From positions 96,001 through 160,000 of IMG/VR virus record IMGVR_UViG_3300021256_000002: 64,000 nt of DNA. One strand, 5' to 3'. A model generated the notes under the pieces. The model was given only the letters and a program-made list of their open reading frames with translations. It was not told the origin of the DNA and did not search any database. Both the position numbers and the translations under genes were made by a program. The DNA comes from a virus. Taxonomy: Duplodnaviria > Caudoviricetes. How positions within the stretch are numbered: position 1 is the stretch's first letter; the number at the start of each line of letters is the position of its first letter. This document shows positions 2,589 to 63,964 of this stretch, piece by piece.

Positions 2589-4727
2589 TTATGGCTTATC
2601 TTCAGGATTCATTCTGAATTGGAGCTTGTACAGATGACTACCATCACGAGTATCAACGAATGGTGCACCAACAAACGAACGACCAGCCATTCCAACAGAT
2701 TCGTTGTAAATCTTACAAGCTGTTCTATCATTAGCGTTGGATAACCTGTTGAATTCAACGATATTTACAGGATTATAGTCATCTTTCTTTCCATAATGGA
2801 AAGATATATTGTACGTCGGAGAACGAACTTGGTTATCTGCACCAGTATCAGAATAAGCACTTGATGGACAGTTGGTTGGGAAGCACCCAGTGAATTTTGT
2901 ATAGAAGAGAATATTCTCATCAGTTGCATCGGTAAGGAAATAGTAAATTGATATCGCATAATCTAGTACCGAATTCAAATTTCTTTCCTTAGGAGTAACT
3001 TCACCTCTCCATGCGGCGTTGATATATTCAGTCCAAAGTTTCATCATCTTATATACTGAGAGCATATTATCATCTCTGAATGAAACTTGTACAGTACCAG
3101 CTGTTTTAGATTTGATTGTACTTGTACCATAATCAACTGACCACCCAGTATACGACGTGAATGCGTTTTTGGTTTCAAGAACTTCATCAGATATATCAAT
3201 ACCCGTACAGCAATCAGTAAGCTTCGGAATGAAGTAATGGTCTGACGTAGCATCTCGAGTGAGATAACTTGCCAATACAGAATGCGCTTTGGTAAGATAC
3301 ATTGCAATTGGTGCACCATGACCAAATCGCATCTTCTGATTGCTACTTACACCTGCAATTGTCATCGCAGATGATTCCAATACACCATTCCCAGCTGAAT
3401 CCATAAACCCACCTTCTTCAGTATACATCGAAGAAGTATTACCCAATCTATATCGAGTGAAATCAAGATTCAAATCTGGTCTAGTGAAGAAGATATGTGC
3501 TCTAGACCCTGTGAGAATATTATCTAATGTAGGTATTCTAAAGCGATTGAACTTGGTGAATGTAGTTCCTCTATCAACGAATAACCCTACGTCTTTATGT
3601 ACGATATTCACCATATCCATAACTTCTTTGTAGTCCCTATCTTTCATCTTTCTAAAATAGGTTACCATGGTATCTCCACCATATCCATTGGAAGTAGGAC
3701 GATTATCATACATATTGGTATTCGTACCTTGATATAACTCAACTCTATTAACTCCATTGATAGTCGATGAACCAATCGGTGATAAACCAAGCCCCATCAA
3801 CTGCCTAGAGTCGGTCGTATTTGTTACCACTCTATCATAGAAGCTGGTAGCAGTTCGATTGTATACCGAGCTAGAAAGATTCATCATCCTATAGGTCTCA
3901 TCTCTATTACCAATAAAATCCCAATAGCTGAAATATCCAATCATACTATCAGTCAATCCAAATGCAGCCATCTGGCGATGATTGATTTGCTCGGTATTTG
4001 CAGACCCACCAGAATCATATCGAGCTCTTCTCCACTCGCTATTGTACGCACTTGACCTACTAGCATCAAACGCAGAAAAATTAAACCCGATAATGAAACT
4101 TAACTTATTACCAAGCCATGCAGCAAGTAACCCATCTAAGAAGTTAAGAGCATTTGCTGCGATAATACCAAGAGCATCACCACTCATAATGGTATTGATA
4201 CTAACACCATCTAATATGGTAGCTGCTGTTCTATTACTACCACCATATATGTTAGCATTACCAATATCCATTATACCTATACCTGCATTTGGATTTGGTA
4301 TTATACTACCATTAATCATGTTATTCCATCCACCTGTAGCAGCATCTAATACAGCTCCAGATCGAGTTAATCCCATATTATCTAAGAAATTGAATCGCTG
4401 AAGCCAATCATATAAATCAGTCTCTTCTTTTGCTTCAGCCATATGATAGCTTATTCCTCTTTTAGGAGTAGAGTTTTTCTTAATCTTAATCAATTTCTTA
4501 GTTGCGTACTCTTTATAATAGAATTCCTTATCACGGATAATTTGAACATGGTCTCCGTATACATACTGGTTTTCTCCTATCAAATAGAAGGTGTATATTC
4601 CATACTTACCGGAGCCAGTAATCTTCACTCCAGTACCAGCTTTGATTTCACCAGTTTGCCATGTATTATCTAATGTAGGTTTCGATCTAATGATCGTATC
4701 TTTCTTTATCATTCCTACGATATCCAT
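2589..4727 (-). CDS. Virion protein: N-terminal SH3-like domain, C-terminal tail-tube-like (baseplate tube initiator) domain
   Basis: RBS supports a start at MDIVGM (4727). The C-terminus (FFTRPDLNL, VSFRDD..VYKMMKLWTEY, FTGCFPTN) resembles the tube/gp48-gp54-type fold. Adjacent to the baseplate gene and preceded by a late promoter. Confidence 0.55.
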   Translation of the reverse strand: MDIVGMIKKDTIIRSKPTLDNTWQTGEIKAGTGVKITGSGKYGIYTFYLIGENQYVYGDHVQIIRDKEFYYKEYATKKLIKIKKNSTPKRGISYHMAEAKEETDLYDWLQRFNFLDNMGLTRSGAVLDAATGGWNNMINGSIIPNPNAGIGIMDIGNANIYGGSNRTAATILDGVSINTIMSGDALGIIAANALNFLDGLLAAWLGNKLSFIIGFNFSAFDASRSSAYNSEWRRARYDSGGSANTEQINHRQMAAFGLTDSMIGYFSYWDFIGNRDETYRMMNLSSSVYNRTATSFYDRVVTNTTDSRQLMGLGLSPIGSSTINGVNRVELYQGTNTNMYDNRPTSNGYGGDTMVTYFRKMKDRDYKEVMDMVNIVHKDVGLFVDRGTTFTKFNRFRIPTLDNILTGSRAHIFFTRPDLNLDFTRYRLGNTSSMYTEEGGFMDSAGNGVLESSAMTIAGVSSNQKMRFGHGAPIAMYLTKAHSVLASYLTRDATSDHYFIPKLTDCCTGIDISDEVLETKNAFTSYTGWSVDYGTSTIKSKTAGTVQVSFRDDNMLSVYKMMKLWTEYINAAWRGEVTPKERNLNSVLDYAISIYYFLTDATDENILFYTKFTGCFPTNCPSSAYSDTGADNQVRSPTYNISFHYGKKDDYNPVNIVEFNRLSNANDRTACKIYNESVGMAGRSFVGAPFVDTRDGSHLYKLQFRMNPEDKP

Positions 4728-4850
4728 CAAAGAATCCTCCTTTCTGTTGGAGTTCATATATTAAAAATTTGTGCGATGGAGTAACTACAAAAGAAAAGAA
4801 AGAAGCAGCGAATCCCGCCAGGGTCTTACTTCTTTCTTTCATCTTAGGTA

Positions 4851-5147
4851 TTATAGGGTGTTTTCCCAGGGCTTTGCAGCCTGCTGGAAGCGGAGATACT
4901 CAAGTTCCTGTTTGCGGTGCCAAGCCGCAGCCTCCTCCTTTTTGGCTTCCATCAAGAAAGCCAACTTCAGGAGTTGGGATTTGGCGTCATCGATGTTGAT
5001 GCCATTGAATTCCACTGACAAGAGTACCTTGCCAGCTTCATCCTGCACATCAACGCTACCGAAGAAACTCTCACCGTTGGGCCCGCGGTCAATGCTGAAG
5101 CGGTCTACGATAGCGCCAAGGTGTTTGTGGGAAGTGCAAGTTGCCAT
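4851..5147 (-). CDS. Hypothetical early protein
   Basis: GGAGG RBS before MATCTSHK; has its own promoter, structured leader and terminator. Confidence 0.7.
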   Translation of the reverse strand: MATCTSHKHLGAIVDRFSIDRGPNGESFFGSVDVQDEAGKVLLSVEFNGINIDDAKSQLLKLAFLMEAKKEEAAAWHRKQELEYLRFQQAAKPWENTL

Positions 5148-5240
5148 GATGATTACCTCCAAGTAATATCATCTCCCGTACGCGTTGGGAGGAATCCTAA
5201 AAGCTATCTTAGCGAATGAAGTTGGATTCGACTTTTCATC
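5148..5240 (-). ncRNA. Candidate structured 5' leader RNA (copy A)
   Basis: Highly similar to 14290-14384, with conserved pairings ATGAA/TTCAT, GAATCC/GGATTC, GCTA/TAGC, CTCCC/GGGAG and an RBS hairpin. Confidence 0.6.
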
Positions 5241-5279
5241 TACCAATATAATATATATTTATTTAGAGTGACTTTTAGG
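5240..5279 (-). promoter_or_regulatory. Extended early promoter CCTAAAAGT...AATATATATTATATTGGTAG
   Basis: The same motif occurs at 14251-14290 and 48229-48268. Confidence 0.75.
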
Positions 5280-5367
5280 GTTTTATTTTGGAACATAGAA
5301 AATGTGCTTTAATATCTCGCCAATAAGACAATTTTTTAAAACTTTAATATGAAAGGAGAGGGGTATC

Positions 5368-6651
5368 TTGGGTATCTTGAAAGATATTTTAAGTGTTACT
5401 AGAGACATCTACGTCACTGATACAGATCCTGAAGATCTGTTCACTGATGATGAAGGTCGTCCGGTATCAAAGTATCGCCCCGTGTCATACGATTCTGTTG
5501 CAAAACAGGCAAAGAATGGGACAATGCAGTTCCCTGTACTTGCAACTCGTTCTTTGGCATATAATGATATGCTAATGATCAGCAAAGCATGCGAACGTAA
5601 TTTCGCTAGTATGCTGCAAATTGTATTCTCGATGAATTCTGTGACGAGTACTGACAATCCTCAGGAATTCGTAAATCAGTATCATCAAAATACGAATAAC
5701 AGTATTCGAGGTGCAAGCGATATCATTGGACTCGTTTTCAACAGTACGGACCCGAATCAAATGGCTCCTTGTGTACCTGGTGCAAGAAAGGCGTTGCTTG
5801 AAGAGTCGATTCCGTATTCTTCTCAGTTTGAATTGTCTTCTATAAACGAGAAGTTTGTTCCCGTGAATAGTAAGAAGATGATAACTATGGAGAATAACGC
5901 TATCAACTTCGATACGGTAACTGAAGCTAAGAAAGAAAAGGCGTTCAATCCCTATCAAGCTACAGGTGATAAGGATATGATTCCGAAGAATATGTTTGTT
6001 GATAGCGAAGTGAAGAAATGTAATGAGCTTGCTCCTACATTGATGCATGTTCGTATTTTAAAAGATATGGGTGAAGCTTCCAAATTCATCGACTTCATTG
6101 TTGGTGTGAAAGCGTACATTCATCCAATCAATTCTAACGATATGATCGATCATCTCGTTTCTGCTCTCAAAGACCGTGGTAAGTTGTTCCGTTTCCTCCA
6201 GTGGACTACTGGCGAAATCTCGTTCTTCAAGGATTTGATGTTCAACATTGATTCCATCAAGAACGATGTTCGTGATGTTCGTGGAGCGAATGGTAATTCC
6301 TCGTGGTGGAGAGCGCTCAAGAATATCAAGGCTTCCCGTCGTTTCCATAAATGGACTCGTACTGGTCCGGTTCTTCCGAATGCTACTCTTGTAGTATCTA
6401 TGGAAGAAGTTGACTATATCAAGTCTAACCATGGATTTGATTTGTTGGAAGATTCCGTTGGTGAAAAGATCCTTGAAGAATACAATCTTCTTCAGTTGGT
6501 GATTGTTGATAGTTCTTCTGAAATCGTTCATTTCTTGATCGATGGTGAACATCGCTACAATACACTGACCTACAAGGGTCTTGAACGTCAGCAAGGTGAA
6601 GCTGACAAACAGTTCAAAGAAATTCTGAGAGCTGTTAATAAACTTCAGTAA
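5368..6651 (+). CDS. Putative virion (head) structural protein
   Basis: 427-aa ORF with RBS and late promoter GACAATTTTTTA (5327-5338); first gene of a late cluster. Confidence 0.5.
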   Translation: MGILKDILSVTRDIYVTDTDPEDLFTDDEGRPVSKYRPVSYDSVAKQAKNGTMQFPVLATRSLAYNDMLMISKACERNFASMLQIVFSMNSVTSTDNPQEFVNQYHQNTNNSIRGASDIIGLVFNSTDPNQMAPCVPGARKALLEESIPYSSQFELSSINEKFVPVNSKKMITMENNAINFDTVTEAKKEKAFNPYQATGDKDMIPKNMFVDSEVKKCNELAPTLMHVRILKDMGEASKFIDFIVGVKAYIHPINSNDMIDHLVSALKDRGKLFRFLQWTTGEISFFKDLMFNIDSIKNDVRDVRGANGNSSWWRALKNIKASRRFHKWTRTGPVLPNATLVVSMEEVDYIKSNHGFDLLEDSVGEKILEEYNLLQLVIVDSSSEIVHFLIDGEHRYNTLTYKGLERQQGEADKQFKEILRAVNKLQ

Positions 6652-6660
6652 TAGGAAGGG

Positions 6661-7701
6661 GTGAATAAAGAAATGGAAAATTTGTACGTTCACTCTATTA
6701 CAAAGAAAGAAGTTCCTGTACGGATGACTTGCGAAGGGTTTCATTGTGAACAGCTTCGTAGTCTCGTTGAAGCGAACTTCAGCCGTGATCAGTTGATGAA
6801 ACTGAATGCAACCATGGAAAGCCCTACTGGGGCAATGGATGTACTTCAGCGTTCATTCAGTACTGTCACTGGTGGTATAAAGAAATGTATTCATTCTATC
6901 ATAGGTCGTCAGGATACCTATGAAACTGAAATTCTTAAGTCTAAAGGTGATATCAGTAAGATTCAGCGTATTGATACTACGCTTAAGATTCTTCGCCTTT
7001 TCACTAAGGATAAGAATAGAACTATTTCTCGTAGAGCAGGACAGGTTCTTCGTTTGTATGATCATATTCATTCAATGAAAGCAACCTTCATGCTTGGATA
7101 TCAACACAAAGGTTCTCTGAACGGTTCCTTTGTATGGGGTACATATGTGATATATGCTCAGTATATCGTAGTTTGTACTTCGCATCTCGCTGCAATGCAT
7201 GCTAACGTGATGAAGCATGAAAGTTATGCTCTTCGTAATCTGGATACCCAGATTAAGGGTTGTAGCGATGGTAGCTTGAAGAAGTGGTGTGAATTCTTCA
7301 TGAAGAAGAAGAAAAACGACTTCGTCAAAGAAGATGGTGGTTTGTTGGTAGTAACGGCAGTTTTGCTTGGTGCTGTAATCACGGCTGCTTTCTTCTTGAG
7401 AGTGTTGGTATTCTACTTCTACTATTGCCGTATGCAGCTTAGCGATTATCTCAATCAGCAGTCTGACTATTTCAATCTCCATGCTTCTGAAGTAAAGAAA
7501 TCTGGTATGGATTCTTCTCAGAAGGACGCTGTGTTGAAAGCTCAGAAAACTTGGGCTGATAGATTCGCGATGTTGTCTGATGCGATCGTAGTTGAGGACC
7601 TTAAAGCTAGTCGGAAAACTACCGATACTATTAAGGTAGCCAACAAAGAAGTAAATCCATCAAAGATTGACGTTCCTAATGTAGGAATGGATTTTATTTG
7701 A
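6661..7701 (+). CDS. Putative virion protein with hydrophobic segment
   Basis: 346-aa ORF co-transcribed with 5368; hydrophobic stretch LLVVTAVLLGAVITAAFFL follows VKED. Confidence 0.5.
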   Translation: MNKEMENLYVHSITKKEVPVRMTCEGFHCEQLRSLVEANFSRDQLMKLNATMESPTGAMDVLQRSFSTVTGGIKKCIHSIIGRQDTYETEILKSKGDISKIQRIDTTLKILRLFTKDKNRTISRRAGQVLRLYDHIHSMKATFMLGYQHKGSLNGSFVWGTYVIYAQYIVVCTSHLAAMHANVMKHESYALRNLDTQIKGCSDGSLKKWCEFFMKKKKNDFVKEDGGLLVVTAVLLGAVITAAFFLRVLVFYFYYCRMQLSDYLNQQSDYFNLHASEVKKSGMDSSQKDAVLKAQKTWADRFAMLSDAIVVEDLKASRKTTDTIKVANKEVNPSKIDVPNVGMDFI

Positions 7702-7757
7702 TGATTTATGTGAAGAAACATCTTAGTAAAAATACATTAGTAAAGGAGGACTCATAA

Positions 7758-8933
7758 ATGAATATGAGTTTGTTTGATCAGGTAGTCAACGAATCTTATA
7801 GCGCTGATCTTGGCGGCTATTCTGCTGATTCGTTGGATGCTGCTGAAGAAAGTTACATTAACGATGTAATTACTGACGATCCTGTAACGTTGTTCCAATA
7901 CACTGGCGAATGCTCCAATGCAATCATGGCTCTGGAAGCTGCTGAAGCTCGTATGGAAGGTATGATGTGCGTTAAGTTTATGAACGCTCGTTCTGCCAGC
8001 GACGAAGTTGCTATGGAAGAGACTGTTGCTACCATGGAAGGCTTCGTTGGTAACATGTGGGAAACTTTGAAGGAAATTGTTAAGAAAGCATATGCTGCTG
8101 TCAAAGCGTTCCTTATCAAAGTTTGGAATAAGTTCAAGAGCTATGGTAACGTTGTACGTGCAATGCTGACCAAATATGGTGATGTTCTGCGTCATAAACG
8201 TGTGCCGGGCCTCCGCGTTAAGTGGGAAAAGATCAACATCATGGCTGCTGAGCCGATCATGATGAAAAACCTTGAGAAATGCACGAAGATGATTGAGCAG
8301 CTCAAGCATATGTATGAAGGCATTAAGGGTCTGCGCCAGAACAATCCTAAAAATCCGTATGCAGATAAGAATCCGGAGACTGTTCTGGCTACTCATCAGT
8401 TTGTCAATACCGGCGCTAAAGGTGTTGCTGATGGATTGCCGACTCCTGGCGAAATCGAAGATGAACTCGAAAAGGAGATTTATCCGGAAAAGGCCAGCAC
8501 TGACCAGGAACTCGAAAAACCGTTCGAAGAAATTCGTCCGGAAGCTATCAAAGCTGCCGATGCATCTTCGTACAAAACCTACTTGGATAGGTTTATGGCT
8601 ATTGGTAACAAGCGTTATCAGGCTGATATGAAGTGCATTGAAGACCTTAAGCGCGAATTCCATAAAGAAAAGAGTGCCTACTCTGGAGCTGGTGCAAGCC
8701 ATATCCATACCGAGATTCGTCGCTGCTTGAATGCTGAAATCAGTATCATCAACATCTGCACGCATGCAATGACCACTGCTGCTAAACGTATGCAGTCTCA
8801 GTCCATCTCTGCTTGCCGTAAAGCAATCATGCATCATGGTACTGAAGGTGATGGCGCAACGTATGCTGGTGAATCCTATACTCCGTCTGGCACAGATTAT
8901 TTCGATAGCCTCATGAGCAACCTCGGCTATTGA
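7758..8933 (+). CDS. Internal head protein-like
   Basis: Acidic N-terminus with repeated x-x-E sites, then TMEG-FVGNMWETLKEIVKKAYAAVKAFLIKVW, an amphipathic helix typical of jumbo-phage inner head proteins. Late promoter at 7717-7728; strong codon bias. Confidence 0.6.
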   Translation: MNMSLFDQVVNESYSADLGGYSADSLDAAEESYINDVITDDPVTLFQYTGECSNAIMALEAAEARMEGMMCVKFMNARSASDEVAMEETVATMEGFVGNMWETLKEIVKKAYAAVKAFLIKVWNKFKSYGNVVRAMLTKYGDVLRHKRVPGLRVKWEKINIMAAEPIMMKNLEKCTKMIEQLKHMYEGIKGLRQNNPKNPYADKNPETVLATHQFVNTGAKGVADGLPTPGEIEDELEKEIYPEKASTDQELEKPFEEIRPEAIKAADASSYKTYLDRFMAIGNKRYQADMKCIEDLKREFHKEKSAYSGAGASHIHTEIRRCLNAEISIINICTHAMTTAAKRMQSQSISACRKAIMHHGTEGDGATYAGESYTPSGTDYFDSLMSNLGY

Positions 8934-8944
8934 TACGTGAAATT

Positions 8945-8980
8945 AGTAGATATACCTGTTAATCAGGTATATCTACTTTT
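8945..8980 (+). terminator. Intrinsic terminator
   Basis: AGTAGATATACCTG/CAGGTATATCTACT followed by a T-run. Confidence 0.8.
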
Positions 8981-8999
8981 ATCAATTTTTTAAAATAAA

Positions 9000-9072
9000 T
9001 TTCAAATATATAATATATATGTAGAGAAAATAAAATATTTCTAGTTTAACATTTTAGGAGGAATGCGTTATG
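9000..9072 (+). repeat. Early promoter + leader + RBS cassette, copy 1
   Basis: Near-identical to 63891-63964. Confidence 0.85.
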
Positions 9073-9333
9073 ACAATGACGAAAGAAGAATTTTACCAGA
9101 GAATTATAATGCCTGTGGTGCGTGATGCTGAATCTAGTTCAAAACAGCAGATGAGCGAGGCTATTGATAAGCATTATGAGCTTATTGCTAAAGCGAAATC
9201 TTGTGTTAGGTATGATGTAAAAGAACGCTTACTGAAAGAATCTACTGAAGTTCTAGAACAAGCTTTATTAGCCAAAGAGAAAGCCGATAATGGAATAAAT
9301 GAATTTGTAGCTAGTTCTTTATTGCGCTTTTAA
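9070..9333 (+). CDS. Hypothetical early protein
   Basis: 87 aa, AGGAGG RBS, own promoter and terminator. Confidence 0.75.
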   Translation: MTMTKEEFYQRIIMPVVRDAESSSKQQMSEAIDKHYELIAKAKSCVRYDVKERLLKESTEVLEQALLAKEKADNGINEFVASSLLRF

Positions 9334-9443
9334 AGCATTTTCGTAAGTACAGAAGAAAACAGCCGTATGGCTGTTTTCTTTTACCTCTTTATTCACTCGA
9401 CATCTCAGTAACATTAAAATACAAAATGAAAGGAGATTCTCCG

Positions 9444-12107
9444 ATGATTCTTTTAGATAAAGTGAATAGAGAAGATGGAAATATCGACCTTCCAGTGCAC
9501 GATATTTCTTTTGAATCTAACACACCAAAGATTGAAGATTTCACGGATAATATGGCTACCTTCATCAAAGGAGCATATGAATCTGTGAAAGATACGAGTT
9601 GTAATAATAATATCATAATGGAAGCATCGCTTGATGCAAATAAGTTTTCAACTAAGTTTTTCACTGCTGTCAAGTCGGAGTATAGAGACAATATCACCAA
9701 TCTCAGAAATAAAGCTGCTAGGGATTTGACTGAAGCCGCTAAGAAATACCAGAAGATTATTACTAATCAAACGATTATGAATAATCTTCATGATATCACT
9801 CTTAAAGGCTTCAAATATACTACGAGTGATAGCCATTTCACAACAGACGGACTTTCTGAAATCATGTATAAAGCAGAACAAGGCGTTGCTGCTATTGAAT
9901 CTTCAAATTCTGATTTCAGCGCATTTGCCAACTACTATTGTGGGATGATTGGTACTGAAGAACAGTACGCAAGACTTCGTGGTATTCTTGTAGGTAGAAA
10001 TTTCTGTCCTGCTGATAGATACGGAGATGAGCTCTTTAAGTATTTCCGTAATGGAGAAAGTAGACCATCTGAGATATCTTTCAGAGAAAAAGATATCTAT
10101 GACGTCAAATGGGCACTGAAAGATATGCGTATGAGTCTTGATGAGTGTGAACGTGAATATCAGAAGATTGCTGCGATGATTGATAATATCATCACATATG
10201 TAAACACTCAACCAGTTGTACTTGCAGATAATCTTTCTATCCTGAAAGCTCAAGCTGCTGGTACTCCGTATGTGAAATACAAAGTATTCCATGTAGACGG
10301 AGAAGTATGGGATAGAAACCAGAAGTACAATGCTCTGGCTACGATATATTCCAGAACAAATGCTGCTCTCAGAGGTTGCTTGAGTATTCTCAATAAGTTT
10401 GTTATTGCTAAGCTGAATGCTCTCAATGCAGCTGCTAAGATGTATGACCAGTATTTCAGTAAAGTACTTGGAGCTAAATCTATTTCTGAGTCAACTGATG
10501 TTCGTACTTGGTATGATTATCTGGATGAGCATTTCGAAGCGTTTGATGAACGTTTTGAGAATCAGATTCTTGAAGCGTATATCACAGAACTCCATACTCT
10601 CAGTAATGGTTTGATGAAGGGTAAACTCTTGTACGAAGCTGGTGGTGTTGAAGTAAAGGCTACCAACGTAGCAGCAAATCGTACTGGTTCTGGTGGTGGA
10701 GTATTTGGTGCTCTTGGAAACTTCATCCAGAGTATTTTGAATTTCATCAATGAAATGCTTGGTAAGTTCGTGAATAATATCAAAGGTCTTGAAGGAATGT
10801 CTCAGGATCTGGCGAATGATGCTCAGTATCTAAAGAATATTCCCGAAGAGCTTTTGAATGATATGACTCTCACATATCCAGACCCGATTGATAATGATTC
10901 TTTCAGCCGTCTGGCAAGCCATGATATTCCTATCGATAACAAGAATTTCGATGCTATTGCTGATCAAATTGCAAATCAGAATATCACCAAAGACCAAGTA
11001 TATCCTACGTACTTCAAGGAGTTATATAGGATTAACAATAACGACTATAAAGAAGCAGCGTATAGATATTATCATGGTCATAATGAGAAAATTACAAAGA
11101 AATTGATGGGTAAAGATCATGATGGTGGTAACTATATGAAGGTTGCTAAAGGTAAAGCTTGCTTGGAAGAAATCAATCGAATGTTTAACTACTGTATGAA
11201 CCTTCAGCCGTATGCTGCATCTTGTCAAGCTACAATGGATAAGCTCAGACAGCAGATAACTAAGCACTCCAAGCAACTTGACCGACTTAAACGTGAAGCT
11301 GGTAACATTGAAGCGGATAAGAATAGAGCAGAATACCAGCAGAAAGCTAAAACTGCTACTATATCTGGTCCGGTTCAGCAGACTGCAAACGCGATGGGTG
11401 TAAAGGTAACAACGAACTCATGGGCTCCAAGTTTCTCGATGTTGGAAGACGCTCCAATTGAAGAGAGCACCTTACGTGATTACCTTGTAGACCAATTTGG
11501 TATTCCTATCGTATTTGAAGCTCCGACTGCAATGGGTAACACTGCGATTGCGAATAGTCCTGGTGTGTCTATTGGAACAAGTGCTAATCCAGCACCAGCT
11601 GTTAATAGTGGTGCTCCAGCAGCTGCTGCTACTAAAGCTATTAACCCACAAGGTGGTCAGGCTAGTACAGGACAGAGTGTGAACCAATCGGTTAATCAGG
11701 TTCAAGGTAAACCTGGTGCACAACCTCAGCAGAAACGTGATTTTGACCAAGAGTTGAATACGAATAAACAAGCTCAGGAAAAAGCTCGTACTATCCAGAT
11801 GGTATACCATATTGCAGTAGCTGTTGCTGCTCAGAAGATGTCTGTTACTGAGAAACTCTTCAAGGATTATTATAACATCCTTAAAGGGGTAGCTGCTAAA
11901 GTTAAACAGTATCATGGTATCAAGGAAGACGAAGCTAACGAAGCTGATCGTCGTGCTAAGGTTGAACAGAACCGTCAAGACCAACTTAGCGACCTTGAGC
12001 ATAAACGTCAAGTCAATAAAGCTAATCGTAAAGCTATCGACGCTGGTAAACAAAAAACTGGTGGCTTGCTAGGATTAGCCAAATGGATTACCGTTGGTCA
12101 TCGGTAA
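9444..12107 (+). CDS. Large putative internal head/virion protein
   Basis: RBS before MILLDKV; late promoter at 9399-9410; several x-x-E sites (SFES, IMEA, ISES, LYEA, VFEA); Q/P/A-rich region. Confidence 0.55.
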   Translation: MILLDKVNREDGNIDLPVHDISFESNTPKIEDFTDNMATFIKGAYESVKDTSCNNNIIMEASLDANKFSTKFFTAVKSEYRDNITNLRNKAARDLTEAAKKYQKIITNQTIMNNLHDITLKGFKYTTSDSHFTTDGLSEIMYKAEQGVAAIESSNSDFSAFANYYCGMIGTEEQYARLRGILVGRNFCPADRYGDELFKYFRNGESRPSEISFREKDIYDVKWALKDMRMSLDECEREYQKIAAMIDNIITYVNTQPVVLADNLSILKAQAAGTPYVKYKVFHVDGEVWDRNQKYNALATIYSRTNAALRGCLSILNKFVIAKLNALNAAAKMYDQYFSKVLGAKSISESTDVRTWYDYLDEHFEAFDERFENQILEAYITELHTLSNGLMKGKLLYEAGGVEVKATNVAANRTGSGGGVFGALGNFIQSILNFINEMLGKFVNNIKGLEGMSQDLANDAQYLKNIPEELLNDMTLTYPDPIDNDSFSRLASHDIPIDNKNFDAIADQIANQNITKDQVYPTYFKELYRINNNDYKEAAYRYYHGHNEKITKKLMGKDHDGGNYMKVAKGKACLEEINRMFNYCMNLQPYAASCQATMDKLRQQITKHSKQLDRLKREAGNIEADKNRAEYQQKAKTATISGPVQQTANAMGVKVTTNSWAPSFSMLEDAPIEESTLRDYLVDQFGIPIVFEAPTAMGNTAIANSPGVSIGTSANPAPAVNSGAPAAAATKAINPQGGQASTGQSVNQSVNQVQGKPGAQPQQKRDFDQELNTNKQAQEKARTIQMVYHIAVAVAAQKMSVTEKLFKDYYNILKGVAAKVKQYHGIKEDEANEADRRAKVEQNRQDQLSDLEHKRQVNKANRKAIDAGKQKTGGLLGLAKWITVGHR

Positions 12108-12179
12108 ATATTCATATGAAGATACGATTCAAGTCGTATCTTCATATTTTCGACCAATAAATAAGGTAGGTGAAATCTA

Positions 12180-14000
12180 ATGGCTAAGATATCTAAATTC
12201 GGAGGTGTTGGTGGAACTGGTGGTAGTTTCAACCTTGGTAGCATCTTCGGAGGAAATAGTCTTGGAGGACTAACTAAAACATTAGCAATTGCATCTGGTA
12301 TAACGGCTCTATTAGGAGCATTAACTAAAGCAAAATCAAATTCTTCGATACAGAATTATCGTTATCGTTATAATGTAACGAAATTTCAAATGATATTCCC
12401 TGGAGAGGAAGCAGAACCAAAAGAGATTATCGGAAATGCTATCAAGATGATAACTGCAACTTGGTTGTATGATGAGTGTATCCATCCTACGTTAGAAATG
12501 AATGTAATGCTTCCTCCGAAGTTGTATAATAAGATAATTGATAATAAGGATAAAGTAAAAGCAGTACTAAGAATTCAACGTACTGCATATGATGAAACAA
12601 ATAGTCCGGTTGTAACCAAAGACTGGATAAATGGTGAGTTTGGATTCATTCTCGATAATGAAGTTAAGTATACTGAGGAACAAGCTCATGATGAGAAATC
12701 AAAACAAGCTCCAGGAGAATACAATGAAGCTGACTATAATACTCCATTCAATCTAAGTCTTTGGAAACAAAATGATTTGGATGCTATGCGTAAGGTAGTC
12801 AATACCATCGTAAATAATGCTGATGTTGGTACAGCAATGCGAACGGTATTTGGTGAAGCTAACTTCAATAAGATAGTAATGTCCCCGTTGGATAATAACG
12901 CCAAATACGACCAGATAATCATCATGCCAACAAACTTGATGAATATACCTGATTATTTTGAAAAGGCATATGGGACTTATTATACAGGTACTCAGATGTT
13001 TTGTGACTTTGATAGATTATATATCTTGAGTAAGAATGGTATATGCGATGCGTTTGAGGATGGAGAGTATAAGCGTACCATTTTTGTTATCAAAGGTTCA
13101 CAAGACCCTGATAGTAAGAAAGCTGGTACTGCTGAAGATAAACAATCTAAAGTATACTACATGTACGTGAATACTGGTGATGTTGATACTCAAACACCAT
13201 CAAGTAGTTCAGACTTGATTGAAGGTAATAACGTAACTATCATCAATAGCAATTCCAATCAAACAATGGAGGTTGGAGGTGCTGGTAATCAGAATGGTGC
13301 TGGTAATAATAGAGTAATCACGGATAACTACGGTAATGACTTCAATAAGTCAACTGTACTAAGTGATATCAACGAAAAGAATGGTGAAGTTACCGTATAT
13401 ACATCAGACTACAATCTTGAAGCTCTCACTCCAAACAAAGAAATTTTGGTAGTATTTGAAGAGAAAGATAAGCAGTCTAAGAACGGGTTCTATCGAATCA
13501 AATCCTCTACTGCTATATTGGGTAAGGAAGACCATGATTTGATGTCAACTGGTAAACATGTTCTGGTATTCAAACGAGCACTTACGTCTGATGAAAGTAA
13601 TCAGATTTTGGTTTCTATAACTAAAAAGAATAACCTCAGTAATATCGGAGGTGCGAGTAATATTGGCTCTAAAGCAATGGATACTGCTGGTGGTAGTGGC
13701 TCAAGTGGTGCAGCCGCATCTGCTAATAACGTAATAGAAGATAAGGTAAAAGCACCTATACCAAGATTCCAAGGAATGGATGCTGAGGAGATAATCTCAT
13801 CAACGAATGTGACCCCAAATGATGTACCCAAGAACCCAAACTTTAATTATGATGACTTGGGTAATGTTAAAGGTGTTGATATTCCTGAGTATAACCGTAT
13901 AACTGAAGATGATGATAATTCTGTCCGTAGAGCGAAACAAGAAGCTCAAGCTAAGTTACTTCCTAGTGAAACTCCTCAACCAAGAAAGTTGATAGGATAA
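12180..14000 (+). CDS. Putative tail/baseplate hub-like structural protein
   Basis: 606 aa with Gly-rich N-terminus and beta-rich core; late-gene context. Confidence 0.4.
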   Translation: MAKISKFGGVGGTGGSFNLGSIFGGNSLGGLTKTLAIASGITALLGALTKAKSNSSIQNYRYRYNVTKFQMIFPGEEAEPKEIIGNAIKMITATWLYDECIHPTLEMNVMLPPKLYNKIIDNKDKVKAVLRIQRTAYDETNSPVVTKDWINGEFGFILDNEVKYTEEQAHDEKSKQAPGEYNEADYNTPFNLSLWKQNDLDAMRKVVNTIVNNADVGTAMRTVFGEANFNKIVMSPLDNNAKYDQIIIMPTNLMNIPDYFEKAYGTYYTGTQMFCDFDRLYILSKNGICDAFEDGEYKRTIFVIKGSQDPDSKKAGTAEDKQSKVYYMYVNTGDVDTQTPSSSSDLIEGNNVTIINSNSNQTMEVGGAGNQNGAGNNRVITDNYGNDFNKSTVLSDINEKNGEVTVYTSDYNLEALTPNKEILVVFEEKDKQSKNGFYRIKSSTAILGKEDHDLMSTGKHVLVFKRALTSDESNQILVSITKKNNLSNIGGASNIGSKAMDTAGGSGSSGAAASANNVIEDKVKAPIPRFQGMDAEEIISSTNVTPNDVPKNPNFNYDDLGNVKGVDIPEYNRITEDDDNSVRRAKQEAQAKLLPSETPQPRKLIG

Positions 14001-14029
14001 AAGAAGAGAAGCATTCGCTTCTCTTCTTC

Positions 14030-14215
14030 TTACAGTTTCTGCTCATACATTTTTCTCTGAGCAACCTGCTTTGCACGGACCACGCTCATGTCATCATCTT
14101 CAGGGTTAATCCAATTCCCAACTTCCTTAATCTCAGCTGTTAAAGAAAGCGAGGTATTTTCTTTGGTTGCCTGAATAATGTTTCCATTAGGGTCCATTAT
14201 GTAATTTATATCCAT
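14030..14215 (-). CDS. Small protein similar to the C-terminus of the adjacent 606-aa protein
   Basis: GGGAGG RBS; INPEDDDMSVVRAKQVAQRK versus ITEDDDNSVRRAKQEAQAK. Confidence 0.7.
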   Translation of the reverse strand: MDINYIMDPNGNIIQATKENTSLSLTAEIKEVGNWINPEDDDMSVVRAKQVAQRKMYEQKL

Positions 14216-14250
14216 ACAAATCATCCTCCCTTTACATTGTAGTTGGAATT

Positions 14251-14290
14251 CCTAAAAGTTCATATAAATAAATATATATTATATTGGTAG
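14251..14290 (+). promoter_or_regulatory. Extended early promoter
   Basis: CCTAAAAGTTCATATAAATAAATATATATTATATTGGTAG. Confidence 0.75.
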
Positions 14291-14384
14291 ATGAAGAATA
14301 GAATCCACCTTCATTCGCTAAGATAGCTTATTGGATTCCTCCCTCAACACGTACAGGGAGAGTATTACTATAGGAGGTAATACT
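14290..14384 (+). ncRNA. Candidate structured 5' leader RNA (copy B)
   Basis: See copy A at 5148-5240. Confidence 0.6.
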
Positions 14385-14705
14385 ATGTTACAGTCCACCA
14401 CCAACATCCAGGCCCGTATGGAAGATGAGCTGAATAAGCTCAAAGCGCTTTGCGCGTTCGGGCATGAGCGTAACCTTGCTATGCGTTGGATAGACGCACA
14501 CGGCAAGGTTAACGACATCTGGATCACCCGAATGAACGATTACGGGTGCGGAGATTTCATCCGTCAATCACTCGACGAAGTCTCTGAAGCTGAACGCTTT
14601 GGTGTACTCAGCGCATACCAAGCACAATGTGTTTATGGCGCACTTGTCGCTATGTACAGAAGTTCGAACTATCTGCAGCATTGCAGAAAGTTCGGGATGA
14701 AGTGA
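14385..14705 (+). CDS. Hypothetical early protein
   Basis: AGGAGG RBS before MLQSTTNIQ; terminator at about 14706-14741. Confidence 0.7.
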   Translation: MLQSTTNIQARMEDELNKLKALCAFGHERNLAMRWIDAHGKVNDIWITRMNDYGCGDFIRQSLDEVSEAERFGVLSAYQAQCVYGALVAMYRSSNYLQHCRKFGMK

Positions 14706-14750
14706 CAAAAAGAAAGCGGACTCTACATCCGCTTTCTTTTCTCTGTTCCA

Positions 14751-25325: not shown

Positions 25326-25366
25326 ATGGTAGCTGAAAAGCTAAATTGGATTAAGGAGGAATCATT

Positions 25367-25750
25367 ATGATAGAAAAGAAAGATAATTTCGTCGTATCCA
25401 AAACGGATACGACGAAATTTAAAAGCAATCTCGTCGTACCTATTTTAGGTACGACGAGATATGAAAGTTATTTCGTTGTCCCTAAAACAGGGACGACGAA
25501 CTATAAAAACAATTCTATTGTTGCCGTTTTGGCAACGATAGAATCTAAAGACAAATTTATCGTATCCAAAATGGATACGATAAATTATGAAAGTAATTTC
25601 GGCGTTGCCAAAATGACAAAGCTGAGATCTAAAAGTTATCTCAGCGTATCCAAAACGGATACGCCGAATTGTAAAAATGATTTCGGCGTCGGTAAAACAC
25701 GACGACGAAATGGCTCAGTCAAAAGAAAAGCTAATCTCAAAGAAGAATAA
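25367..25750 (+). CDS. 14-aa repeat peptide encoded by the hairpin array
   Basis: GGGAGG RBS; eight in-frame repeats of the type NFVVSKTDTTKFKS with no stops. Confidence 0.55.
   Translation: MIEKKDNFVVSKTDTTKFKSNLVVPILGTTRYESYFVVPKTGTTNYKNNSIVAVLATIESKDKFIVSKMDTINYESNFGVAKMTKLRSKSYLSVSKTDTPNCKNDFGVGKTRRRNGSVKRKANLKEE
25385..25713 (+). repeat. Tandem array of 8 hairpin/palindrome units, 42-bp period
   Basis: Units start at 25385, 25427, 25469, 25511, 25553, 25595, 25637 and 25679. Each is a 15-nt arm, 5-nt loop, 15-nt arm and 7-nt A-rich linker. Confidence 0.95.
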
Positions 25751-48228: not shown

Positions 48229-48268
48229 CCTAAAAGTTAAGAAATATGAATATATATTATATTGGTAG
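48229..48268 (+). promoter_or_regulatory. Extended early promoter (third copy)
   Basis: CCTAAAAGTTAAGAAATATGAATATATATTATATTGGTAG. Confidence 0.75.
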
Positions 48269-48342
48269 CCAACGAGAAAGTCATAACCAAGAGTAAGAGT
48301 TGTGAATCGCTCGATTTCTATGTTCCGAAGGAGGAATCTGCC

Positions 48343-48738
48343 ATGGCTAACAACAACGAAACCCTCGAGATCACCACCAACCAGGACATTGCTGATGTCT
48401 TGGTCAACCTTGCGTCCGACCTAGAGGAACAAGGCAACTTTGTTGCCCCTCTGCTCAAAAATGATACGGCCGGAGCTAAGTTGGTCTTAGAAAAGCCGAC
48501 ATTCACCCTGATGGAGGTTAGCGGCCTTCTGCAGGACATCGCGGATCGGCTCCGTGAACTGGGTCCAACCGAAGCATGGAAACCTCGGCTAGTAGTCGAA
48601 GGTCCTCGAGAAGGGGACAACATCATCCCGCGGTTTGCGACACTCGCATCCAAAGAGTGCGCCCATGACATTTCGGTAGATGAATATGCGAAGGAAGGGG
48701 GTGAACATTTCGAGCAGTTCACGCTCGAGCTCAAGTAA
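48343..48738 (+). CDS. Acidic hypothetical early protein
   Basis: AAGGAGG RBS before MANNNETLE; GC-richer than its flanks; terminator at about 48742-48784. Confidence 0.7.
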   Translation: MANNNETLEITTNQDIADVLVNLASDLEEQGNFVAPLLKNDTAGAKLVLEKPTFTLMEVSGLLQDIADRLRELGPTEAWKPRLVVEGPREGDNIIPRFATLASKECAHDISVDEYAKEGGEHFEQFTLELK

Positions 48739-48807
48739 GAAAAGAAAGCAACCGGAACGGAATCCGGTTGCTTTCTTTTCTTTTATTTCTTGAAAGTATC
48801 GATACTT

Positions 48808-63835: not shown

Positions 63836-63890
63836 TAGAATGAGTCTAGGATTTAACCTAGACTCATTCTTATCTATTTTTCAATTCACA

Positions 63891-63964
63891 TTTTAAATAT
63901 ATAATATATACGTAGAGAAAATAAAATATTTCTAGTTTAACACTTTTAGGAGGTATGTGTTATG
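63891..63964 (+). repeat. Early promoter + leader + RBS cassette, copy 2
   Basis: Near-identical to 9000-9072. Confidence 0.85.

Follow-up and report, generated by a model that had tools for sequence, protein, structure and literature searches.

The locus under study lies in a 64,000-nucleotide stretch of DNA (hereafter the window), bases 96001-160000 of the 253,296-bp IMG/VR record IMGVR_UViG_3300021256_000002, which has direct terminal repeats. At two places in this window an early promoter motif is followed directly by a structured leader of some 95 nucleotides (nt), then by the ATG of a small open reading frame (ORF) of no known family and by a strong intrinsic terminator. A first-pass annotation, made from the DNA letters alone, had described these two leaders (copies A and B) as one element of about 105 nt shared by two unrelated early genes. 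Both copies lie where that annotation placed them and have the sequences it quoted, but they are shorter, 93 nt (A) and 95 nt (B), and its count of two, correct for the window, rises to four for the genome, where copies C and D lie outside the window (table 1).

The record is that of an uncultured, distant AR9/PBS1-like jumbo phage of the ruminant gut. A virion protein encoded in the neighborhood is about 29% identical to AR9/PBS1 g214, the gene order g212-g217 is kept (tblastn), and in a strain contig 97% identical to this genome an RNA polymerase beta-like gene (RNA_pol_Rpb2_6) adjoins cassette D. The window occurs in sequencing runs of gut metagenomes from sheep, cattle and other animals.

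The Leader and Its Cassettes

Exactly four leaders were found in the genome by BLAST, by nhmmer and by a covariance model derived from the copies, with the next-best match at E>0.3; the nhmmer search of the 253-kb genome gave E values of 1e-25 to 1e-28 for the four copies and E>1 for the next match. A repeat finder returned copies A and B as 93-nt arms that are 89% complementary, and their similarity continues for about 45 nt upstream of the leader, through the box CCTAAAAGT and an AT-rich block that ends with TATATTGGTAG. In the entire 253 kb the four leader copies are the only places with the pattern CTCCC-N6-12-GGGAG, whose expected frequency is 0.09 per 64 kb.

All four copies have the same layout, in which promoter, leader, the ATG of a small ORF without known relatives (an ORFan) and a strong intrinsic terminator follow one another. 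The ORFs behind copies A, B, C and D encode 98, 106, 66 and 135 amino acids (aa), and the earlier statement that the downstream proteins are unrelated extends to a larger set: ten cassette proteins, those of the four leader copies and of six sister cassettes, have no similarity to one another and belong to no Pfam or PHROG family. A search of the ESM Atlas for the function of the cassette ORFs gave nothing usable.

Early Promoters and the Predicted Transcript Start

The AR9 transcriptome report (Lavysh et al. 2017, PMC5312081) maps 41 early starts behind the motif AAATATATATTAT-(6N)-G+1, which is read by the virion RNA polymerase, and describes the early untranslated regions (UTRs) of that phage as long (26-491 nt), with a predicted but unexplained motif within them. 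The AR9 13-mer is perfect (13/13) in front of all four leader copies, where it is followed by 6 nt, an A and then the conserved G of TAG, a 1-nt offset from the AR9 rule. By this rule the transcript is predicted to start at the leader's GAUGAAG or 1 nt before it, rather than downstream of the element, and the leader's first helix (P1) would therefore begin at +1 or +2. The earlier description of a structured 5' leader on early genes is supported.

A motif scan of the genome yielded 23 early promoters. The other early leaders measure 17-58 nt (up to 68 nt by a reading based on the Shine-Dalgarno sequence (SD) and ATG) against 93-95 nt for the four copies, the other exception being a second leader family of two members, 68-75 nt long. 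A CCTARAA box is found at 10 of the 23 promoters, nine times at a distance of exactly 19 nt before the core, and all ten drive small ORFans with a GC content of 0.43-0.55 and a third-position GC (GC3) of up to 0.63; the other early genes have values of 0.31-0.44 and the genome as a whole 0.38. The promoters of the four leader copies all belong to this CCTARAA class, which may be a distinct, perhaps immediate-early, subclass with foreign-looking cargo.

Structure and Covariation of the Leader

The structural analysis used 14 distinct leader variants, comprising copies A-D and ten more from sister strains. Six sister copies came from a pattern scan of Joint Genome Institute (JGI) metagenome contigs and seven from ENA, Logan and JGI contigs to which homologues of ORF D and those of a 97-aa ORF considered below had led, some of the copies so collected being truncated or the same as another; all strains bearing the variants are 84-98% identical to this genome.

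Three local hairpins, P2, P3 and P4, are supported by these variants. In P2, nine sequences have U-A at the pair 31-37 and the other five have C-G, with no mixed case; the loop occurs in four forms, and the covariation score was reached by none of 500 shuffles. P3 is either CUCCC/GGGAG (5 bp) or CUCCCU/AGGGAG (6 bp), the longer form arising by a paired U/A insertion; the first-pass annotation had noted an added T/A pair in copy B. P4 exists in eight different sequences, each of which folds into an SD hairpin (-5.0 to -8.5 kcal/mol; z values from -0.5 to -3.4) whose loop and 3' arm contain the SD and whose stem ends at or in the AUG; AGGAGG or GGAGG stands 6-10 nt before the ATG in 13 of the 14 variants. 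The other variable positions are L1, L2, the P2 and P3 loops and the junction J2. The two earlier observations, that differences fall mostly in loops and that the hairpin around the ribosome-binding site (RBS) carries compensatory changes, hold better still with 14 variants, and the copies differ from a simple duplication without covariation by the compensatory changes that P2, P3 and the RBS hairpin show.

The 5' part of the leader is more constant. P1 is the preferred local fold and starts at the predicted +1/+2; five of its seven pairs are invariant, its base pair alternates between G.U and G-C, with one A.C in copy A, and the G.U/G-C exchange is its only covariation. We regard P1 as plausible. 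The strand GAAUCC in its loop could pair with the downstream GGAUUC, as had been proposed, and all six pairs of this helix are invariant in the 14 variants; one perfect 6-bp complement in a 95-nt RNA is approximately at the chance level. In nested folding the two helices are nearly equal in energy, three copies choosing one and the remaining copy the other, and the loops of 4, 2 and 17 nt would make both sterically compatible in an H-type arrangement with P2 in loop 3. A pseudoknot of P1 with GAAUCC/GGAUUC is possible, and covariation says nothing about it because this helix and most of the ATGAA/TTCAT stem never vary.

Among 17 non-redundant early leaders of the phage, nine have their first four nucleotides paired, against 4.0 +/- 1.6 in shuffles, so that a 5'-terminal stem looks like a rule for the phage's early mRNAs of which P1 is one instance. 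Two further contacts were considered and rejected. A tertiary contact between L1 and J2 (AGUC with UUUUA, AAUA with UUAUU) is broken by the sister-strain variants L152 and L145, and linkage in recombination blocks fits these positions better; a switch in which the anti-SD-like CCUCC pairs with GGAGG was judged unlikely on energy grounds.

The topology of the 5' part also raises the question of a self-cleaving ribozyme of the hepatitis delta virus (HDV) type, or of an exoribonuclease-resistant knot at the mRNA 5' end, and we hold both to be very improbable. HDV-like ribozymes have a P1/P2/P4 order that resembles the leader's P1, hairpin and downstream-pairing strand, and the leader does offer a 7-bp P1 that starts from the first nucleotide and has G.U as its base pair, and a P1-loop strand that can pair downstream of the hairpin. 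However, only 1-2 nt separate the pseudoknot strand from the 3' strand of P1, leaving no room for P3/L3/P1.1, the junction UU(A/U)U(U/A/C) has no conserved C matching J4/2, and no Rfam ribozyme family, the HDV type included, matches at E<=10. With these core elements missing, the HDV-like reading was discarded.

A leaderless upstream peptide is even harder to credit. An AUG does occur at the extreme 5' end (+2/+3), and in copies A, B and D, three of the four, it opens an 11-codon frame, MK(N/S)RI(H/Q)LHSLR, that ends at the UAG in P2. But copy C and the sister variants L160 and L185 have a 1-nt insertion, after which the frame reads into an unrelated product of 26-29 codons, and the stop is lost in L145. 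This reading too was rejected, the frame not being conserved while the RNA helices are.

Table 1. Positions of the leaders, their helices and the associated cassette features, in window coordinates unless marked as genome coordinates
Feature	Position	Strand	Details
Leader copy A	5240-5148	minus	93 nt; ATG at 5147
Leader A, helices P1, P2 and P3	P1 5240-5234/5221-5215; P2 5213-5203; P3 5191-5173	minus	
Leader A, P4 (SD hairpin) and candidate pseudoknot strands	P4 5172-5148; strands 5229-5224/5197-5192	minus	
Promoter upstream box, cassette A	5271..5279	minus	CCTAAAAGT; 19 nt before promoter core
Early promoter core, cassette A	5241..5260	minus	AAATATATATTAT-ATTGGTA; predicted +1 = A 5241 or G 5240
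ORF A	4851..5147	minus	98 aa; GC 0.52; without known family
Terminator, cassette A	4795..4839	minus	-18.6 kcal/mol, z -3.4, then T-run
Leader copy B	14290-14384	plus	95 nt; ATG at 14385
Leader B, helices P1, P2 and P3	P1 14290-14296/14309-14315; P2 14317-14327; P3 14339-14360	plus	
Leader B, P4 (SD hairpin) and candidate pseudoknot strands	P4 14361-14384; strands 14301-14306/14333-14338	plus	
Promoter upstream box, cassette B	14251..14259	plus	CCTAAAAGT
Early promoter core, cassette B	14270..14289	plus	
ORF B	14385..14705	plus	106 aa; GC 0.50; without known family
Terminator, cassette B	14704..14747	plus	-18.1 kcal/mol, z -5.6; loop GGACTCTACATCC
Leader copy C	genome 16425-16331	minus	
Leader copy D	genome 236576-236483	minus	
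Sister cassette	48229..48785	plus	CCTAAAAGT box, early core, +1 at 48268, terminator
ORFan of the sister cassette	48343-48738		131 aa; GC-rich

Exchange of Modules Among Strains

Leaders, ORFs and whole cassettes have been exchanged as modules among the sister strains. In two strain contigs (L160 and L186) the leader replaces, exactly from +1 to the ATG, the 36-nt leader that the same 97-aa gene has in this genome (genome 207542), and homology to the genome reaches +1 and resumes inside the 97-aa ORF. Another contig (L155) has the flank and leader of locus A followed by a D-like ORF, and at locus C of L152 there is a B-like leader. In the relative L131, whose neighboring virion protein is 87% identical, cassette B is absent between two conserved neighbors, and locus A is occupied by another early cassette, whose promoter is followed by a short leader and whose ORF is not the same. 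Five unrelated ORFs in all carry the leader, and the presence or absence of cassettes differs among strains. As these comparisons show exchange at the module borders, the leader is not tied to one gene product.

The same events could suggest that the leader is repeated DNA without an RNA function, the product of recent duplication and gene conversion that serves at most as recombination homology and contains incidental hairpins. The copies are indeed pieced together from a few sequence blocks, the leader is where exchanges have their endpoints, at least one gene can dispense with it, and at locus A it has diverged between strains about as much as its surroundings (three differences in 96 nt against 95% flank identity). 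We nonetheless consider this explanation decidedly unlikely. Substitutions avoid the stems or are compensated, as in the P2 U-A/C-G swap, whose two sides change together in all 14 sequences; P4 occurs in eight rewritten versions that all keep the hairpin; a P3 pair was gained by double insertion; and the paralogues are unrelated past the ATG while their leaders are 83-87% identical.

Part of a cassette was also encountered in a different setting. In L177, a 3306-bp ENA scaffold (positions 2832-3306), the C-terminal half of ORF D and its terminator, 90% identical to genome 236297-235945, are joined to a His_Phos_1-type N-terminus that stands behind a sigma-A-like promoter and a helix-turn-helix (HTH) gene, a context of bacterial appearance. 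Either the assembly of L177 is chimeric, or a fragment of the cassette has been captured elsewhere.

A Probable Generic Expression Leader and Its Alternatives

On balance it is probable, if well short of certain, that the element is a generic leader that shields the 5' end of the mRNA and presents the RBS, within early-gene cassettes that are shuffled in the manner of the promoter-early stem-loop (PeSL) cassettes discussed below. The number of copies, their position behind the promoter motif, the covariation of the hairpins and the modular exchange are direct observations; the exact start site, the stabilizing and RBS-insulating effects and the joint pseudoknot of P1 and GAAUCC/GGAUUC are what we infer from them. 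A generic module is favored over a gene-specific riboswitch because the same gene is found with or without the leader and because five unrelated genes carry it. As to the earlier suggestion of a riboswitch or ribozyme, nothing in the data points to ligand sensing or self-cleavage.

The cassette has the order CCTARAA box, virion-RNA-polymerase early promoter, leader of about 95 nt, strong SD, GC-rich ORFan and intrinsic terminator. P1, at +1/+2, would hide the 5' end from the 5'-end-dependent decay (of the RNase J/RppH type) of Firmicutes. P2 and P3 are local hairpins, the latter keeping the anti-SD-like CCUCC tract paired, and P4 would display AGGAGG in a hairpin loop right before the AUG, from which it would follow that initiation is independent of the ORF that comes next. 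In the DNA itself, the homology by which leaders, ORFs and whole cassettes are swapped between strains would come from the conserved flanks, promoter-leader on one side and terminator on the other.

Several facts sit uneasily with this proposal. The invariance of P1 and of the pseudoknot helix is nearly complete and deprives them of informative covariation, and the whole-leader folding energies are only mildly better than those of shuffles (z -0.9 to -2.5). The 14 variants all belong to a single phage species complex and plainly show recombination among a few blocks, and for this reason the independent compensatory events are few. The start site rests on the AR9 rule, from which the conserved G departs by lying 7 rather than 6 nt after the 13-mer, and the contigs of the RNA libraries cover late genes, not cassettes: four ruminant-gut RNA libraries, used as contigs only, cover the late genes at 5357-8919 and a few pieces up to about 12100. 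Finally, many early genes of the same phage have short leaders (17-50 nt), so the additional 60 nt or so may do something more specific than protection, and a pure stabilizer does not explain the invariant unpaired bases of the P3 loop and the junctions. These bases and the extra 60 nt leave room for a role in factor binding or sensing.

Such a role is the substance of one alternative, a regulatory RNA that answers a factor acting in trans, either as a riboswitch or, more likely, as an operator bound by an RNA-binding protein or nuclease of phage or host origin. The pseudoknot/P3 core would bind the factor, P4 would be the expression platform, and a small early regulon would be switched jointly, for example at early shut-off. 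The 5' 70 nt are conserved far beyond the need of simple hairpins, GAAUCC, GGAUUCCUCCC, the P3-loop CGUAC and several junction bases being invariant in 14 variants; the near-isoenergetic P1 and GAAUCC/GGAUUC are what a pseudoknot or a bistable element would show; 35 nt before the SD there is an anti-SD-like CCUCC tract; and the leader marks a defined subset (4/23) of the early genes. We consider this alternative unlikely all the same. No Rfam family matches even at E<=10, and no SD-sequestering fold is competitive, P3 and P4 together giving about -13 kcal/mol against a 5-bp long-range helix. The 97-aa gene has a plain 36-nt leader in this genome, the element is limited to one phage species complex, unlike the known riboswitch classes, and the invariance may reflect recent common ancestry and gene conversion. 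It is likewise doubtful, though conceivable, that the pseudoknotted 5' core (P1, GAAUCC/GGAUUC, P2 and P3) acts as a block to RNase J similar to an exoribonuclease-resistant RNA (xrRNA), or as a sensor or operator that times an immediate-early, possibly anti-defense, regulon.

Sister Cassettes and Other Features

The sister cassette in the window has a different structured leader of 75 nt, which belongs to the second early-leader family. The members of this family, at window 48268-48342 (plus) and genome 16009-15942 (minus; 68 nt, L179), stand behind promoters of the same class and before unrelated ORFans of 131 and 164 aa. They share a stem-internal loop-stem with a compensatory change (CGAG/CUCG vs UGAG/CUCA) and a U.G/C-G change. 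A third, small family is represented at window 8979-9055 and 63870-63946, where two early promoters precede 88%-identical leaders of 46-47 nt that open with a 5' hairpin (GAGAAAAUAAAAUAUUUCU) and stand before different small ORFs.

The terminator loop GGACTCTACATCC is common to five of the ten cassettes of the CCTARAA class. The terminators of these five have a hairpin with the loop GGACTC(T/A)ACATCC and a GCTTTCTTTTCT tail, and are located at window 14718-14730 (plus) and at genome 201942, 236050, 16115 and 15430. Another motif, TTCTATGTTCC, recurs just past several terminators, before promoter A and in the second-family leader (window 48316).

Elsewhere in the window, a 127-aa ORF that starts 35 nt past an early promoter (+1 at 25332) contains an array of perfect hairpins with a 42-bp period (25369-25689, plus). 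At 7728-8919, with an ORF of 391 aa (7758-8933), lies the segment of a 10-kb stretch best covered by the four animal-gut RNA libraries; this ORF probably gives rise to an abundant late transcript of the capsid type. Outside the window, a tRNA gene (58 bits; genome 16517-16600, equivalent to L002:1682-1765, minus) lies about 90 nt upstream of the copy C promoter.

Distribution and Significance

The Rfam search called for by the first-pass annotation gave no match at gathering thresholds in the window and none overlapping the element at E<=10 at the four loci. Neither the leader nor 4.6 kb of its flank matched a GenBank phage by blastn. In IMG/VR two strict pattern scans came back empty, and a loose P1/pseudoknot pattern gave at least 115 chance matches, none of which nhmmer confirmed; among prokaryote genomes (one per species) there were five chance pattern matches. 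None of these bacterial and archaeal matches was confirmed by the model, so there is no sign of a host origin. The covariance model found no copy in AR9, vB_BpuM-BpSp or Listeria phage LPJP1, nor in four IMG/VR relatives (two of them complete) or 39 kb of closer relatives; the IMG/VR relatives were reached with an alignment query, a single-protein query having found none. As an RNA motif the leader is new but narrow, being found only in one ruminant-gut phage species complex and its strains. Its kind, the phage early-gene expression cassette, is already known.

In jumbo phages equipped with an RNA polymerase of their own, expression of the first genes needs no host transcription factors, and how such early mRNAs survive and are translated is poorly understood. 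The element provides a clear case, from nature, of a promoter-leader-RBS unit that is portable, ORF-independent and combined with a standard terminator, and comparison of wild strains shows it being dealt out anew among genes. Should the leader indeed stabilize the mRNA or insulate the RBS, this would explain how new ORFans, which are probably host-takeover or anti-defense genes, are plugged into ready expression frames, and it would make the leader a useful expression part for Firmicutes. If instead the invariant core binds a factor, the leader would be a new phage regulatory RNA.

Comparison With Known Systems

Two known RNAs share the possible topology of the leader. The T4 gene 32 operator is a pseudoknotted leader, and preQ1-II is an H-type riboswitch with an inserted hairpin. 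The leader resembles both in its possible H-type arrangement, with hairpin P2 in loop 3, upstream of the SD. It differs from them in that neither its sequence nor any Rfam model matches, and in that it serves unrelated genes, which excludes autoregulation by the encoded protein.

The resemblance to the AR9 early promoters (PMC5312081) lies in the identical 13-nt AT-rich core followed by a conserved purine start. The differences are that the covariance model finds no copy of the leader in AR9, that the conserved G is 7 rather than 6 nt past the core, and that no upstream box of the CCTARAA kind is given for AR9 in the text consulted.

In Bacillus-type bacteria, a 5'-terminal structure together with a strong SD stabilizes mRNAs (reviewed in PMC3997798). 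Like the 5' stabilizers of the Firmicutes (ermC, aprE, the cryIIIA STAB-SD and the polypurine element of phage SP82; PMC3997798), the leader has a strong SD and, if its transcript starts as predicted, structure or occlusion at the 5' end. The effect of those stabilizers does not depend on the ORF that follows, and they can be moved from gene to gene; the leader, which stands before five unrelated ORFs, is portable in the same way, and any stabilizing effect of its own would likewise not depend on the ORF. It is, however, longer and more elaborate, and its SD-like GGGAG is paired within P3.

The closest parallel to the cassettes as a whole is provided by the PeSL mobile regulatory cassettes of T4-type phages (Arbiol et al. 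2010, PMC2839356; Comeau et al. 2014, PMC4122927). In both systems repeated motifs composed of an early promoter and a structure frame small ORFans, terminators fence the units, and the motifs mark the endpoints at which close relatives differ by insertion, deletion or replacement, as here in L160, L186, L155 and L131. PeSL cassettes frame non-essential ORFans in variable regions, and the present cassettes agree with this in the lack of known families among their ORFs and in their uneven occurrence among strains. The promoter here is of the virion-RNA-polymerase type, whereas that of PeSL is sigma-70-like. The PeSL structure is a terminator stem-loop beside the promoter; in the cassettes described here its place is taken by a transcribed 5' UTR of about 95 nt with four or five helices, and the terminator forms a separate, conserved 3' module.

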